From Dehalococcoidia bacterium (lineage in GTDB: Bacteria > Chloroflexota > Dehalococcoidia > DSTF01 > RBG-16-68-14), in assembly GCA_040882355.1 (NCBI GenBank), contig JBBEBM010000005.1, positions 1 to 46,271 on the forward strand: a stretch of 46,271 nt of DNA. The letters run 5' to 3'. The notes beneath the pieces are model-generated. The model saw nothing but the letters and a program-made list of their open reading frames with translations, searched no databases and had not been told where the DNA came from. The translations under genes were made by a program, and so were the position numbers. This document shows, one piece after another, positions 34,925-38,837 of this stretch (the first letter of the stretch is position 1; every line of letters starts with the position of its first letter).

Positions 34925-36448
34925 CTAGCGGTAAGGACTCCAGCGGCCGCCGCGCTCCATGAACCAGCGGAACATGTCGCGGCGGCTGACCGGGCCGCGC
35001 GGCGCCCAGACCATCTCGTGCGACCGCGGGTCGAGCTCGTGGTAGGCGCTGCGCAGCCGTTCGAGCTCGTCGGTGTCCAGGGCGCAGCGCTGGGCTTCGG
35101 CGTCGACGCCGTAGAGTTTCGCTGCGTTCAGGCCGAAGACCCTCGCCTTGAGGTCGGGCGTCAGCTCCGGGTAGCCGTGCTCCTGCGCCAGCTCCGGGTC
35201 GATCTGGAACGCGCGGAACGCGACGATCTGCGGCTGCGGCCCGCCGTACCAGATGGAGTCGGTGCCCCAGACGACGCGGTCCTCGCCGACGTACTTGAGC
35301 AGCTTGCCGAGCACGTGCGCCGCCTGCGTGGGGTTGCTCATCACGCCGCGCCAGGTCGAGCCCAGCTCCGCCCAGACGTTGCTGTTCGGCTCGATGTCGT
35401 TGTCCTCCAGGCTCTTGATCAGCGCATTCACGCCAACGGCGTTCGCGGCGTCATAAGGCCCTTCGGCACCGGCGTTCATCGGGTCCCAGCCCGAGTGGTA
35501 GACGACGAACTGCATGTCGGGGTAGGCCTTCGCGACGACGCCGATGTCGCGCGGCGACGCATACGACGGGTCGAAACCGAAGAGCGGCAGGCCCTTATGC
35601 GTGCAGATCATCTTCACGCCCGTCTCGCGCGCCTTCTCGATCATCGGGATGCCGTACTGCTCGTCGTCCAGGAACCAGCCCTGGCCCGTCGTGCCGGCGT
35701 AGGGCGTGTACACCTTCCAGGCGGCGACGTCCGTCGTCTCAGCGCGCGCCTGCATCAGGTCGAGCTGGTCCTCGATGCGACCGACGTTGGGCATGACGAT
35801 GCTGTGCAGCAGCAGCCGCGACGCCCCGCCGGCCGAGAGGCGGTCGATGATCTCGTGCGTTCGACGCGACTCCTCGAACGTGAGCGGGTCGACGTTGTCG
35901 GTCGGCGCGGGCGTGTCGGAGAGCACGCCCATCGTTGTGTCGCTGTCGAGGAAGATGTCCTTAAGGTAGTAGTAGCGGCTGGCGCATTCGACGCGGTCCG
36001 ACTCGCTGCAGCCCGGATCGGGCACGTTCTGGAGGAAGGCGGCCATGCCCGGGTTCGTCTGCACCCACGGCCCCTCGGGCGTGACGTGATGCGTCTGGAT
36101 GTCGAAGATGAACTCCTCGCCGTCGAGCAGCTCGCAGACGGCTTCCGGGTCCGGCTCGGTCGGCACCGCGAACGTGCCACCGGGACGTACCTCCTTGTCG
36201 TCGTCGCCCCGGCAAGCCACAAAGTTCACCGCACCGAGCGTTACGGCGAGCCCGCCGAGGCCCGCGAGGAAGCGCCGCCTGTCCACGCGCTGCTTGCGCG
36301 CGATCTCCTCCGCCCGCTCCATGGCGAGAGCGGCGATCATGCGGTGGGCGCGCGTCGGCGCCGGCGGGACGAACTCGCCGTTACTGACGGGGCCGGGCTG
36401 GAAGGGGAGGAGGATCGGCAGCTCGGGATCGGTCTTCCTGGCTCGCAT
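34925..36448 (-). CDS. Amidohydrolase family protein with a twin-arginine-like motif
   Basis: FDIQTHHV, ICTHKG, VVYHSG, VWGTDSIW; internal RRRFL followed by a hydrophobic stretch. Confidence 0.88.
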   Translation of the reverse strand: MRARKTDPELPILLPFQPGPVSNGEFVPPAPTRAHRMIAALAMERAEEIARKQRVDRRRFLAGLGGLAVTLGAVNFVACRGDDDKEVRPGGTFAVPTEPDPEAVCELLDGEEFIFDIQTHHVTPEGPWVQTNPGMAAFLQNVPDPGCSESDRVECASRYYYLKDIFLDSDTTMGVLSDTPAPTDNVDPLTFEESRRTHEIIDRLSAGGASRLLLHSIVMPNVGRIEDQLDLMQARAETTDVAAWKVYTPYAGTTGQGWFLDDEQYGIPMIEKARETGVKMICTHKGLPLFGFDPSYASPRDIGVVAKAYPDMQFVVYHSGWDPMNAGAEGPYDAANAVGVNALIKSLEDNDIEPNSNVWAELGSTWRGVMSNPTQAAHVLGKLLKYVGEDRVVWGTDSIWYGGPQPQIVAFRAFQIDPELAQEHGYPELTPDLKARVFGLNAAKLYGVDAEAQRCALDTDELERLRSAYHELDPRSHEMVWAPRGPVSRRDMFRWFMERGGRWSPYR

Positions 36449-36637: not shown

Positions 36638-37822
36638 CTAAGCGAGCTCGCCCAGCATCGCCCGGTAGGAGGCGAGCCGCTCGTGCAGGAACGAGTCGCG
36701 CGCGGCGCCCGTCGCGACGGCGCAGTCGGGCTCGCGGCGGTGGAGGCAGTCGTGGAAGGCGCAGCCTGGCGCGAGCGACGCGATGTCCGGGAAGTGCGAC
36801 GCCAGCTCGCGGGCGGCGACGCCACCGATGCCGAACGCGCGAATGCCGGGCGAATCGACGACGAAGGTGTCGGGCAGCGAGAGCGGGACGAGCCGCGCCG
36901 ACGACGTCGTGTGGCGACCCTTGCCCTGCCCGGCCGTCGCCTCGGTCACTGTGCCGACGCGCAGCGCGAGGCCCGGCTCGACCGCGTTCAGCAGCGAGCT
37001 CTTGCCGACGCCCGAGTGGCCGGTGAGCAGCGAGACGCGCCCCTCGAGCCGCGCCCGCAGGTCGTCGAGGCCGGCCCCGGACAGCGCACTGACGCGGAGC
37101 GCGTCGACGCCGAGACCGGCGTAGCCTGCGAGGTACGCCTCCACTGCCGCGGAGACGCCGAGGTCAACCTTGTTGAGGCAAACGACAACGGGCAGCGCGT
37201 CGCGCGAGGCGGCGACGAGGTAGCGGTCGATCAGGCGCGGGCGGAACGGCGGAGCGGCAGGCGAGCAGACGACGATCACCTGGTCGATGTTCGCGGCGAG
37301 CACCTGTCCCTTGTGCAACGGGTCGCGTCGGCTCGTATCGGAGACGTCGCGGACGAGCGCGCTGCGCCTCGGCAGCACGTGGACGATGCGCGCTTCGCCC
37401 CGAGAGACGGGCGTCAGCTCGACGCGGTCGCCGACGGCAAGCGGGCTCCGCATGACCGGGTCGACGAGCCGGCTGCCGGGCGGCAGCAGCGCCCGCACAA
37501 CGTGGCCTTCGCAGGAGACGAGCGAGTCGCGGGAGCGCACCTCGATGACGGTACCCGTGAGGGCGGCCGAAGACGGCTCCTGTTCGACGGCGGCCGGCGC
37601 GGGCGGTGGCAGGTCCAGCGCGTTCTGGCGGCGGATCTTCTCGCGGGTGGCGTAGCCGTCGTCCTCCGCGTCCCAGCCCTTGCGCCGGGGCGGCGCTCCG
37701 CGGCGGAGGGATCGGTCCAGCACGCGCTGCCGCTGCGCCTCCCCGACCTGCTGGCGCTGTTCCTTGTGCTGGAAGTGCTTCTTGAGAGACTTGACCTGAC
37801 GGTCGGTGAGCTTATGGGACAC
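36638..37822 (-). CDS. rsgA: Ribosome small subunit-dependent GTPase A
   Basis: OB fold (VGDRV), NKVD, GHSGVGKSS, GRHTT, DSPG, zinc site CAFHDCLH.EPDC. Confidence 0.95.
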   Translation of the reverse strand: MSHKLTDRQVKSLKKHFQHKEQRQQVGEAQRQRVLDRSLRRGAPPRRKGWDAEDDGYATREKIRRQNALDLPPPAPAAVEQEPSSAALTGTVIEVRSRDSLVSCEGHVVRALLPPGSRLVDPVMRSPLAVGDRVELTPVSRGEARIVHVLPRRSALVRDVSDTSRRDPLHKGQVLAANIDQVIVVCSPAAPPFRPRLIDRYLVAASRDALPVVVCLNKVDLGVSAAVEAYLAGYAGLGVDALRVSALSGAGLDDLRARLEGRVSLLTGHSGVGKSSLLNAVEPGLALRVGTVTEATAGQGKGRHTTSSARLVPLSLPDTFVVDSPGIRAFGIGGVAARELASHFPDIASLAPGCAFHDCLHRREPDCAVATGAARDSFLHERLASYRAMLGELA

Positions 37823-37843
37823 AGTTAGCTCCTCACGCTGAAC

Positions 37844-37873
37844 AAACGAAAACGGTCGGGGCGTCCCCGACCG
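37844..37873 (-). terminator. Intrinsic terminator inside the rsgA leader
   Basis: Minus strand CGGTCGGGG-ACG-CCCCGACCG-TTTTCGTTT, about 20 nt before the rsgA start. Confidence 0.8.
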
Positions 37874-37900
37874 CTCAGCATGAGGGAACCGAGTCCCCTC

Positions 37901-37960
37901 TTAGGACACGCAGGCCCGAGGACGCGCGAATACGGACTTCGTCGCAAGCACCTGTGCCAT
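37901..37960 (-). CDS. Putative rsgA leader peptide MAQVLATKSVFARPRACVS
   Basis: AAAGGAGG SD 8 nt before the ATG; lies between the promoter and the terminator. Confidence 0.7.
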   Translation of the reverse strand: MAQVLATKSVFARPRACVS

Positions 37961-37993
37961 GTCTCGGGCCTCCTTTCGATTGCGTTTGGGGAG

Positions 37994-38022
37994 ATGATAG
38001 AGGAGCGCAAGGCGGTTGTCAA
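37994..38022 (-). promoter_or_regulatory. Sigma70-type promoter of the rsgA leader
   Basis: TTGACA-17 nt-TATCAT. Confidence 0.8.
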
Positions 38023-38034
38023 GCGAAATGGCTG

Positions 38035-38064
38035 GCCACAGATTGACACAGATTGGCACAGATG
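38035..38064 (+). repeat. Triple CACAGAT repeat
   Basis: GCCACAGATTGACACAGATTGGCACAGATG. Confidence 0.8.
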
Positions 38065-38255: not shown

Positions 38256-38284
38256 TTGACAACCTGGCGGCGCCTGCATACACT
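38256..38284 (+). promoter_or_regulatory. Sigma70-type promoter of the pan operon
   Basis: TTGACA-17 nt-TACACT. Confidence 0.8.
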
Positions 38285-38286
38285 TG

Positions 38287-38369
38287 GGCTGCCATCGACC
38301 CGAAGGGGCGGTGAGCCAGCGACGAAGCGAAAGCCATCGCTGCTTGGATCCACCGGGACCGAGACGGCG
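38287..38369 (+). ncRNA. pan RNA motif-like leader (two bulged-A hairpins)
   Basis: Hairpin 38287-38317 and hairpin 38338-38369 (CGCTG-CTTGG-A-TCC / GGA-CCGAG-A-CGGCG) upstream of panDBC. Confidence 0.72.
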
Positions 38370-38388
38370 CACATCGAGAAGTGCTTGT

Positions 38389-38426
38389 GCCCTTTCGGCC
38401 GCCGGCGCCGAGAGGGCTTTCGCTTT
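38389..38426 (+). terminator. Terminator-like hairpin in the pan leader
   Basis: GCCCTTTCGGC...GCCGAGAGGGC followed by TTTCGCTTT. Confidence 0.65.
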
Positions 38427-38441
38427 GCGGAGCACGACACG

Positions 38442-38837
38442 ATGCGGACGATGCTGAAGAGCAAGATCCACCGGGCGCGCGTGACCGGCGCCAACCTCCA
38501 CTACGAGGGCAGCGTCACCATCGACCCCATACTGATGGAGGCGGCCGACATGCTGCCGTTCGAGCAGGTACACCTGCTCGACATCGACAACGGCGCCCGC
38601 CTCACCACCTACACCATCGAAGGCGAGCGCGACAGCGGCGAAGTCGTCGTCAACGGCGCGGCGGCCCACCTGATCGGCCGTGGCGACACGATCATCATTC
38701 TGAGTTATGTCCAGTTGCCCGAAGACCGGGCCCGTAGCCACGAACCCCGCCTCATCTACGTGGACGGTGCGAACCGGATCGAACGCACCGGCCACACCAT
38801 CACCCCGGGCGCCGTCGTGGGGGCAGCGTCCGCCTAG
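38442..38837 (+). CDS. panD: Aspartate 1-decarboxylase
   Basis: [34 protein letters not shown]. Confidence 0.97.

Follow-up and report, generated by a model that had tools for sequence, protein, structure and literature searches.

A candidate ribosome-dependent leader switch ahead of rsgA in Dehalococcoidia, with related leaders on RIO kinase and RNHCP genes

Short upstream open reading frames (uORFs) that are followed by a terminator or by a hairpin sequestering the Shine-Dalgarno sequence (SD) precede ribosome-associated factors, as in the leaders of Listeria hflXr (rli80) and lmo0919 and in the erm leaders. In leaders of the hflXr/erm type, the site at which the ribosome stalls is fixed by the peptide or by a drug, whereby an antiterminator is exposed, and R/K-x-R/K is the arrest motif of erm. 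The rsgA leader that we analyzed in a Dehalococcoidia bacterium differs from this type in that its R-x-R codons double as the antiterminator strand, and a ribosome stalled there is predicted to cause termination. With the trp, his, pheA and thr attenuators it shares a leader ORF, an intrinsic terminator and helices that follow the classical 1:2, 2:3 and 3:4 scheme. As in the trp/his type, termination is predicted both without translation and with unimpeded translation, while read-through is predicted with a ribosome upstream of segment 2. In contrast to the trp/his type, the rsgA leader contains no runs of regulatory codons, its early codons are not conserved, and the gene is not biosynthetic. 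A twist on the classical scheme is that segment 1 lies ahead of the AUG and touches the SD, so that occupancy of the initiation site would count and not stalling inside segment 1.

The closest known system is the leader of vmlR, which encodes an ABC-F resistance factor of Bacillus subtilis. An anti-antiterminator that holds the uORF, a small hairpin, a terminator and an SD-sequestering hairpin have been established there experimentally (Takada et al., 2022; PMC9226507). There, a ribosome held on the uORF prevents formation of the anti-antiterminator, the antiterminator forms, and control is exerted at the level of both transcription and translation (PMC9226507). The rsgA leader has an equal order of parts and a predicted two-level control. 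Unlike vmlR, however, it has a uORF of 19-20 codons, the gene downstream encodes a 30S assembly GTPase (or, in related leaders, a RIO kinase or RNHCP protein) and not a resistance ABC-F, there is no sequence similarity, and the phylum is a different one. No NusG TTNTTT pause motif was seen in the leader of the window. A structured 5' leader with a terminator is also found before a ribosome-related gene in the case of B. subtilis rplJL (PMC4538822). Leaders of that type are protein-binding rRNA mimics for which no uORF is needed, whereas the related leaders presented here serve three unrelated proteins. The proposed mechanism is of a known kind, namely ribosome-dependent attenuation with an anti-antiterminator, and the leader is not a member of any described family. 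In agreement with the preliminary description of this DNA, no described attenuator of rsgA was found in Rfam or in the literature searched, which did not extend to subscription-only papers.

Layout and conservation of the rsgA leader

The window, i.e., the whole stretch of 46,271 nucleotides that was analyzed, carries rsgA and its leader on the minus strand. The features are listed below in the direction of transcription.

37994-38022, minus strand: sigma-70-type promoter of the leader, TTGACA (38022-38017), 17-nt spacer and TATCAT (37999-37994); promoter scan, 11 of 12 matches
37969-37976, minus strand: SD of the uORF, AAAGGAGG, 8 nt ahead of the AUG; GGAG core invariant in alignments of 10 and 13 leaders
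37963-37971, minus strand: segment 1, forming the 5' side of helix P1 (the anti-antiterminator); fully complementary to 37920-37912 over 9 bp
37901-37960, minus strand: uORF with ATG at 37960, 19 sense codons and TAA; frame, ATG and stop kept in relatives
37912-37925, minus strand: segment 2, the switch strand, G plus CGU CCU CGG GCC U, codons 13-16 (R-P-R-A); pairs with segment 1 or with the terminator apex
37882-37900, minus strand: small hairpin P2 with a 5-bp stem, immediately 3' of the uORF stop; sequence inspection
37875-37890, minus strand: anti-SD strand, which forms the 5' side of the outer helix P3; minimum-energy folds and cognate versus non-cognate pairing
37853-37873, minus strand: intrinsic terminator hairpin (segments 3 and 4), 9-bp G+C-rich stem with loop ACG; scan, 12 pairs, 8 of them G-C
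37861-37870, minus strand: 3' strand of the antiterminator, inside the terminator hairpin; antiterminator duplexes
37841-37852, minus strand: T tract of the terminator, TTTTCGTTTGTT; sequence and terminator scan
37827-37841, minus strand: 3' strand of helix P3, including the rsgA SD GAGGAG at 37834-37829; SD paired in the minimum-energy fold
36638-37822, minus strand: rsgA, GTG start at 37822, 394 amino acids; PF03193

The promoter, SD, 19-codon uORF, 9-bp inverted repeat, small hairpin, terminator and rsgA had been named in the preliminary description, and all of them were recovered at the same positions. The leader therefore has a short ORF with a ribosome-binding site and an intrinsic terminator ahead of the structural gene, as is characteristic of attenuators. 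The RNA is predicted to start near 37987, and segment 1 overlaps the last bases of the SD and occupies the whole spacer between SD and AUG. Folding of the 168-nt leader gave -77.8 kcal/mol compared with -61.2 ± 4 kcal/mol for shuffled sequences (z = -4.1), a value equalled by 1 of 200 shuffles. The product of rsgA carries the RsgA_GTPase domain PF03193 (E = 2e-45, 155 bits against a cut-off of 30).

Between positions 36000 and 40000, two promoter-like sites were found, compared with 0.2 ± 0.5 in shuffled sequences. The second one faces panD, the upstream neighbour on the opposite strand, and no further promoter-like site that could serve rsgA independently was detected in this interval. The T tract lies just 19 nt ahead of the rsgA start, and a second promoter has no room in between. 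Since no gene on the minus strand ends upstream of the leader, the terminator does not belong to a preceding gene. In the upstream regions of relatives, TTGAC(A/G) and a TA-rich hexamer were read by eye at an equal distance to the SD.

A covariance model (R1) was built from the rsgA-type leaders and searched against the 93 genomes of the order. It gave 12 strong matches (96.8-134.3 bits) in exactly the 12 genomes that bear an RsgA domain, one per genome and directly upstream of rsgA. In the own genome, a single match of 107.8 bits was obtained, the runner-up being a partial one of 14.6 bits. A thirteenth copy of the leader lies on a metagenome contig (L081). RsgA homologues at 59-65% identity in relatives all have the leader, and the promoter, the SD, a 20-codon uORF, the small hairpin, the terminator and the rsgA SD are common to them, as is the spacing between the conserved codons and the stop. 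Conservation of the uORF and the terminator had been proposed as a check, and both are present in 13 of 13 leaders; the uORF (19 or 20 codons) retains its ATG, its reading frame and the place of its stop in each of the 13, although these leaders are mutually related and the counts are hence not independent. In an alignment of 10 leaders, the sole indel within the uORF comprises 3 nt.

The leader was present at just one of 80 metagenome rsgA loci, that of the close relative (61% identity), and was not found at the other 79 (31-43% identity). A pattern scan for the conserved features over one genome per species (185,579 species) returned 14 stretches, 11 of which belong to genomes already matched by R1 and labelled as Chloroflexota, Chloroflexi or Dehalococcoidia metagenome-assembled genomes. 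The remaining three (Brachybacterium, Gemmatimonadales and Limnocylindria) had no R1 match and were taken as chance. Searching Rfam with the leader at E-values of up to 10 identified no family, the sole hit being a terminator-like match of 19.6 bits to STnc390 (gathering score 50).

Alternative pairings and the position of the ribosome

The helices can be described by four strands: segment 1 would be the SD-AUG spacer, segment 2 codons 13-16 of the uORF, segment 3 the inner 5' arm and loop of the terminator, and segment 4 its 3' arm. Segment 2 can pair through 37920-37912 with segment 1 and through 37925-37916 with the terminator apex. The first of these pairings, helix P1, joins the SD-AUG spacer to the uORF, at codons 15-16 in the window and at codons 16-17 in relatives whose uORF has 20 codons, and was predicted by RNAalifold; the earlier observation that the end of the uORF pairs back onto its own SD and spacer was thereby borne out, with a perfect 9-bp helix between 37971-37963 and 37920-37912. 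Over 13 leaders, 98.7% of the P1 cells are paired; one pair shows a double-sided change, from G-C to A-U in two sequences, and two G-U wobbles occur. For the terminator, 100% of the cells are paired and two pairs are changed on both sides. When both helices were considered together over the 13 leaders, 99.5% of the cells were paired, three double-sided changes were counted, and none of 500 shuffles reached the covariation score; slid controls paired at 28-50%. The rsgA-type terminators have 8-10 G+C-rich pairs and a loop of 3-5 nt, and TTTT follows the stem immediately in 11 of 13.

An antiterminator had not been recognized by eye in the preliminary description, but one was found here in the pairing of segment 2 with the apex of the terminator. 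Its 5' strand consists of the ten bases G-CGU-NCN-CGG, i.e., the R-x-R codons preceded by the final base of codon 12, and its partner comprises the inner half of the 5' arm of the terminator, the loop and the first one or two bases of the 3' arm. In the window, 37925-37916 and 37870-37861 form ten contiguous pairs, two of them G-U. Across the 10 leaders analyzed, every one forms the corresponding duplex, with energies between -17.1 and -20.7 kcal/mol. Compared with dinucleotide shuffles of segment 2, the mean z was -1.83; 8 of 13 rsgA-type leaders were below -1.64, and the other five were no better than shuffles (p = 0.07-0.27). The middle R-x-R codon begins with C, U or A, opposite G, A or U beside the terminator loop. 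The register of the antiterminator shifts between sequences through bulges, and covariation by column is given for P1 and the terminator of the rsgA type. In the predicted structures, the antiterminator would exclude the terminator and would itself be excluded by an upstream helix or a ribosome, as in attenuators of this class.

The effect of a ribosome was modelled in nascent transcripts that ended four bases inside the terminator's 3' arm, with a 28-nt unpairable stretch in place of the ribosome. Over 13 leaders, 7.9 pairs between segments 2 and 3 were expected without a ribosome, where P1 competes with the antiterminator. This number rose to 12.6 and 12.1 with the P site on codon 1 and codon 4, respectively, and fell to 6.7 on codon 7, 4.6 on codon 10 and 0.8 on the last sense codon. 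With the P site on the middle R-x-R codon it was 0.0 in 13 of 13 leaders, a result that arises partly by construction, since a blocked segment 2 necessarily loses its pairs. For the leader of the window alone, the values were 3.0 without a ribosome, 13.3, 13.5, 3.0 and 2.9 on codons 1, 4, 7 and 10, 0.4 on the middle R-x-R codon and 0.0 on the last codon. At codon 7, the model generally let P1 close around the ribosome, which is physically doubtful. Folding with and without a footprint, as had been suggested earlier, thus raised the antiterminator at codons 1 and 4 in the nascent RNA and left the full-length equilibrium unchanged: no thermodynamic switch was seen in full-length folds with seven ribosome positions, the mean pair probability of the terminator being 0.79-0.99. 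Since the terminator persists at equilibrium, the decision would have to be kinetic, which is usual for attenuators.

A second layer of pairing was predicted at the rsgA SD. In minimum-energy folds of 10 leaders, the strand between uORF and terminator is drawn paired with the region of the rsgA SD, and the terminator is consequently the tip of a long helix, P3. By a strict count, in which all four SD bases had to be paired to that strand, this was the case in 6 of 10 leaders compared with 158 of 1000 shuffles; in the four leaders that failed, one SD base was bulged in the fold. Cognate P3 strands had a mean energy of -22.1 kcal/mol compared with -17.2 kcal/mol for non-cognate ones, and the cognate partner ranked first in 5 of 10 rows and among the top three in 10 of 10. 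As judged by eye, P2 has an SD-like 5' strand beginning with the uORF stop codon, the anti-SD strand, which can alternatively pair with the rsgA SD, forms its 3' side, and in relatives a hairpin of 4-6 bp and of changed sequence occupies the place of P2.

It is on balance probable that the element attenuates transcription in a ribosome-dependent manner, that a translational layer is added to this, and that it controls the cell's only rsgA. From the conserved parts and their potential to pair, we infer that the uORF is translated and that the order of events would be as follows. In the absence of a ribosome, segment 1 would pair with segment 2 as an anti-antiterminator that buries the AUG, segments 3 and 4 would form the terminator, and transcription would stop near 37841-37850. 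If a ribosome occupied the SD, the AUG or the earliest codons during transcription of the terminator, segment 1 would be covered, leaving segment 2 free to pair with segment 3, and the antiterminator would allow read-through into rsgA. In this read-through state, the SD-like strand after the uORF stop would hold the anti-SD strand in P2, and the rsgA SD would be free. A ribosome that reaches the end of the uORF would strip segment 2 and P2, upon which the terminator would form and the anti-SD strand would close P3 over the rsgA SD. Expression of rsgA would accordingly be on when ribosomes load onto the uORF yet linger at its start, and would be shut off when ribosomes are absent as well as when translation is brisk.

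Candidate causes of such lingering are slow initiation or early elongation, ribosomes that are defective or stalled by a drug, and immature 30S subunits, and general translation capacity is a further candidate input. The early uORF has no conserved codons that would point to a particular signal. No repeated class of regulatory codons was found in the uORF, and its early codons vary freely. Their GC3 is 0.50, compared with 0.92 in the genes of the window and 0.91 in codons 2-12 of those genes. These A/U-ending early codons would fit a loading zone free of structure or, alternatively, a stretch that is slow by design.

Related leaders ahead of RIO kinase and RNHCP genes

In a sister family in which RsgA exceeded the cut-off in none of five genomes, R1 gave two weak matches (26.3 and 22.6 bits), both ahead of genes for RIO1-domain kinases. 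RIO kinases were found in 38 of the 93 genomes of the order (26 of 36 in family f5 and 12 of 21 in family f2) and never alongside RsgA, while 43 of the 93 genomes have neither. Since whole families differ in having RsgA or RIO, few evolutionary events are involved, and the complementary distribution is a lead and not a statistic. At 27 of 31 RIO loci, a uORF of 17-19 codons with a strong SD was followed by a hairpin and a T-rich tail. Two of the four misses were cut by contig ends, one uORF failed the T filter, and at one locus nothing was found.

A second covariance model (R2) was built from these 27 RIO-type leaders. Full-length copies were detected before RIO in 36 of the 38 RIO-bearing genomes, the gene lying at a contig edge in the two others. 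R2 reciprocally matched three rsgA leaders (32.3, 26.7 and 26.4 bits) and also found copies before genes with an RNHCP domain in three genomes (59.2, 53.1 and 32.3 bits), where the domain was confirmed. Outside the order, six further RIO loci were identified among 151 genomes of the class. Four weak R2 matches (L194, L195, L196 and L203) lay inside ordinary coding sequence and were dropped. RNHCP co-occurs with RIO (30 of 36 genomes in f5, 4 of 21 in f2 and none in the families with RsgA), and in one genome it is encoded directly behind RIO. These tallies include an unpublished genome (G060), whose loci were excluded from alignments and models and on which no claim depends.

In the RIO-type leaders, the ATG and an in-frame stop are kept in 27 of 27, at 17-19 codons, and over all leaders the length of the ORF is 17-20 codons in 40 of 40. 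The helix between the SD and the uORF was supported against shuffles (mean z = -1.34; 11 of 27 below -1.64), while an antiterminator read by eye in these leaders was not better than shuffles (mean z = -0.44; 3 of 27 below -1.64). Nascent folds followed the same trend as those of the rsgA type, with 4.1, 8.4, 5.8, 3.7, 1.5, 0.2 and 0.4 pairs in the order of ribosome positions used above for the leader of the window. Shifts in the pairing register prevented a column-wise assessment of covariation for P1 of the RIO type, and T tracts are imperfect in several of these leaders. An Rfam search with four RIO and RNHCP leaders at E-values of up to 1 gave no match. In a literature search that did not cover subscription-only papers, no work on RNHCP as a protein and none linking RIO kinases with Chloroflexi was found.

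Competing explanations and implications

The R-P-R codons of the uORF had been read in the preliminary description as a macrolide arrest motif; accordingly, the nascent +x+ peptide would arrest the ribosome together with the drug, and the stall would induce rsgA, whose product would protect against the antibiotic. All 13 rsgA-type uORFs do contain R-x-R, and uORF-terminator leaders that answer ribosome-targeting drugs are established, as in vmlR (PMC9226507). However, the motif is fixed at the level of nucleotides: the first Arg is encoded by CGT in 13 of 13 leaders, despite this codon making up 8 of 178 Arg codons (4.5%) in seven genes of the window, and the second by CGG in 13 of 13. Variation in the middle codon goes hand in hand with that in the terminator loop, and the residue following R-x-R, A or V, tracks the compensatory change in P1, while many RIO-type relatives do not have R-x-R at all. 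The motif therefore looks like an RNA constraint and is most plausibly an imprint of RNA pairing. A ribosome on its middle codon would cover segment 2 and leave 0.0 antiterminator pairs in each of the 13 leaders, so that a stall there would favour termination and a macrolide arrest motif is unlikely. The related proposal of a protective RsgA paralog is not supported, since the genome (94% complete) holds a single rsgA in searches with both the protein and PF03193. To our knowledge, none of RsgA, RIO kinase and RNHCP is a known resistance factor. Taken together, drug-dependent arrest on R-P-R as the inducing event is extremely improbable. Alternatively, the uORF might act on translation only, by opening or closing the rsgA SD, the hairpin and T tract being a stabilizing or pausing structure. 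This would agree with the anti-SD strand and its alternative P2/P3 pairing and with the imperfect T tracts of several RIO-type leaders, but the rsgA-type hairpin is a canonical terminator in stem (8-10 G+C-rich pairs), loop (3-5 nt) and TTTT (11 of 13), and segment 2 is complementary to its apex beyond chance, which makes a purely translational switch quite unlikely.

Ribosomal-protein and assembly genes are often autoregulated through their leaders, and the leader studied here is strongly structured and conserved, while the uORF peptide is not conserved outside the pairing region. It could be a protein- or ligand-binding RNA, either bound in autoregulation by the encoded assembly factor, bound by a ribosomal protein, or acting as a riboswitch of the alarmone type, with a uORF that is incidental or loads ribosomes. 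Against this, related leaders precede RsgA, RIO kinase and RNHCP, and with three unrelated proteins downstream it is unlikely that one encoded protein binds its own leader. Moreover, SD, AUG, stop and the alternative helices account for all conserved parts and leave no conserved unpaired pocket or junction, the ORF keeps a length of 17-20 codons in each of the 40 leaders, and no Rfam family matches the leader. We consider a binding RNA of this kind unlikely. An independent small gene for a micropeptide or a small RNA of ~145 nt, with rsgA expressed by constitutive leak, would account for the unit's own promoter, strong SD and efficient-looking terminator, and the tandem double hairpins of two relatives (L007 and L009) have the look of firm termination. 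Yet the unit always adjoins rsgA, RIO or RNHCP and has varying neighbours on its opposite flank, the micropeptide is not conserved, and no other promoter was found for rsgA in the interval scanned. In addition, the strand following the uORF fits its own downstream SD region better than those of other leaders, which ties the unit functionally to the gene downstream. A separate small gene is therefore very improbable, and ribosome-dependent attenuation with a translational layer is the reading that we prefer.

The finding of one leader family before RsgA, RIO and RNHCP genes suggests a shared role of these proteins in late small-subunit maturation and a possible 30S feedback. The leaders go with RsgA in two families and with RIO kinases and RNHCP zinc-ribbon proteins in sister families, RsgA and RIO never being found in one genome. 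A 30S subunit that is bound to the very strong SD and unable to start or to clear the first codons promptly would hold segment 1 and thereby switch on a late maturation factor. Immature or RbfA-loaded subunits are of the kind that accumulates when RsgA activity is short. That the leader family senses the quality of the small subunit and that, at the same time, RIO and RNHCP are stand-ins for RsgA in late 30S maturation is, taken jointly, possible though doubtful. If true, it would constitute a direct feedback loop from the maturation state of the ribosome to the synthesis of an assembly factor, and the role of RIO and RNHCP would mirror that of Rio1/Rio2 in the maturation of the small subunit in archaea and eukaryotes.

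How bacteria control the levels of their ribosome assembly factors is little understood. What appears to be new, on sequence grounds, is a leader switch before rsgA with related leaders on RIO kinase and RNHCP genes. As the hosts are uncultured Chloroflexota of the class Dehalococcoidia, any regulatory RNA family defined there is new ground. The rsgA leader may offer a compact and mutable model of a switch that would read the occupancy of an initiation site and not a particular codon or drug, and the leaders shared by RsgA, RIO and RNHCP provide a concrete, testable hypothesis on what bacterial RIO kinases and the uncharacterised RNHCP domain do.

Upstream and downstream of the window's rsgA leader

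On the minus strand of the window at 38034-38060, directly 5' of the -35 hexamer of the rsgA leader, two tandem copies of the roughly 10-nt motif TGTG-Y-CAATC are followed by a third TGTG. The tandem motif is a possible operator; no counterpart of the repeat was seen in the rsgA upstream regions of relatives. Divergent from the rsgA leader, on the plus strand, lies a panD-panB-panC operon with a leader of its own within 38256-38837.

Features of the panD-panB-panC leader and operon start (plus strand)
38256-38284, +, promoter-like site
38290-38371, +, match to the Rfam pan motif (29.7 bits, E 0.008; under the gathering score of 36.2)
38389-38417, +, terminator-like hairpin just 5' of panD
38430, +, start of panD

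The operon leader looks like a pan-motif attenuator.

The RsgA proteins of this clade are extended at the N terminus by some 85 residues rich in K, R and Q (residues 1-88 in the window, encoded at 37560-37822 on the minus strand). Of 79 RsgA loci that are more distant, 74 align to the window RsgA only from residue 65 or later. Two relatives' rsgA leaders, L007 and L009, contain two tandem hairpins. The first hairpin of L009 has no T tract, and base pairing would be possible between its 3' arm and the 5' arm of the second hairpin, which suggests a longer relay of alternative structures.

Leaders at RIO kinase and RNHCP genes

In most RIO kinase loci of f5, a family of the order, the stretch from the terminator to the RIO gene contains another short ORF, 25-45 codons long (L037, L043, L044 and others). 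This ORF is preceded by a very strong SD and overlaps the RIO start (TTG/GTG GGN CAG AAC) in a different frame; it may serve in translational coupling or act as a second sensor. At locus L198 (G188:C12), a leader copy scoring 61.8 bits precedes only the C-terminal third of the RIO domain (profile positions 129-180), as would be expected if the RIO gene had been deleted or were decaying while its leader was retained.

The same leader family was also found upstream of genes encoding the RNHCP domain (PF12647), a domain of unknown function, in three genomes (L191 in G024, L192 in G086 and L193 in G091), and at all three loci a DUF362 gene comes after the RNHCP gene. In a further genome, G020 (L215), the RNHCP gene is located directly 3' of RIO. 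Two f5 RNHCP loci, L210 and L214, were judged by eye to have uORF-hairpin leaders of another type.

Genomes with neither RsgA nor RIO kinase

RsgA and RIO kinase are both absent from 43 of the 93 genomes of the order, including the single-contig genomes G021, G027, G028 and G036, which are rated 92-95% complete. Neither RsgA nor RIO kinase is indispensable in this lineage.
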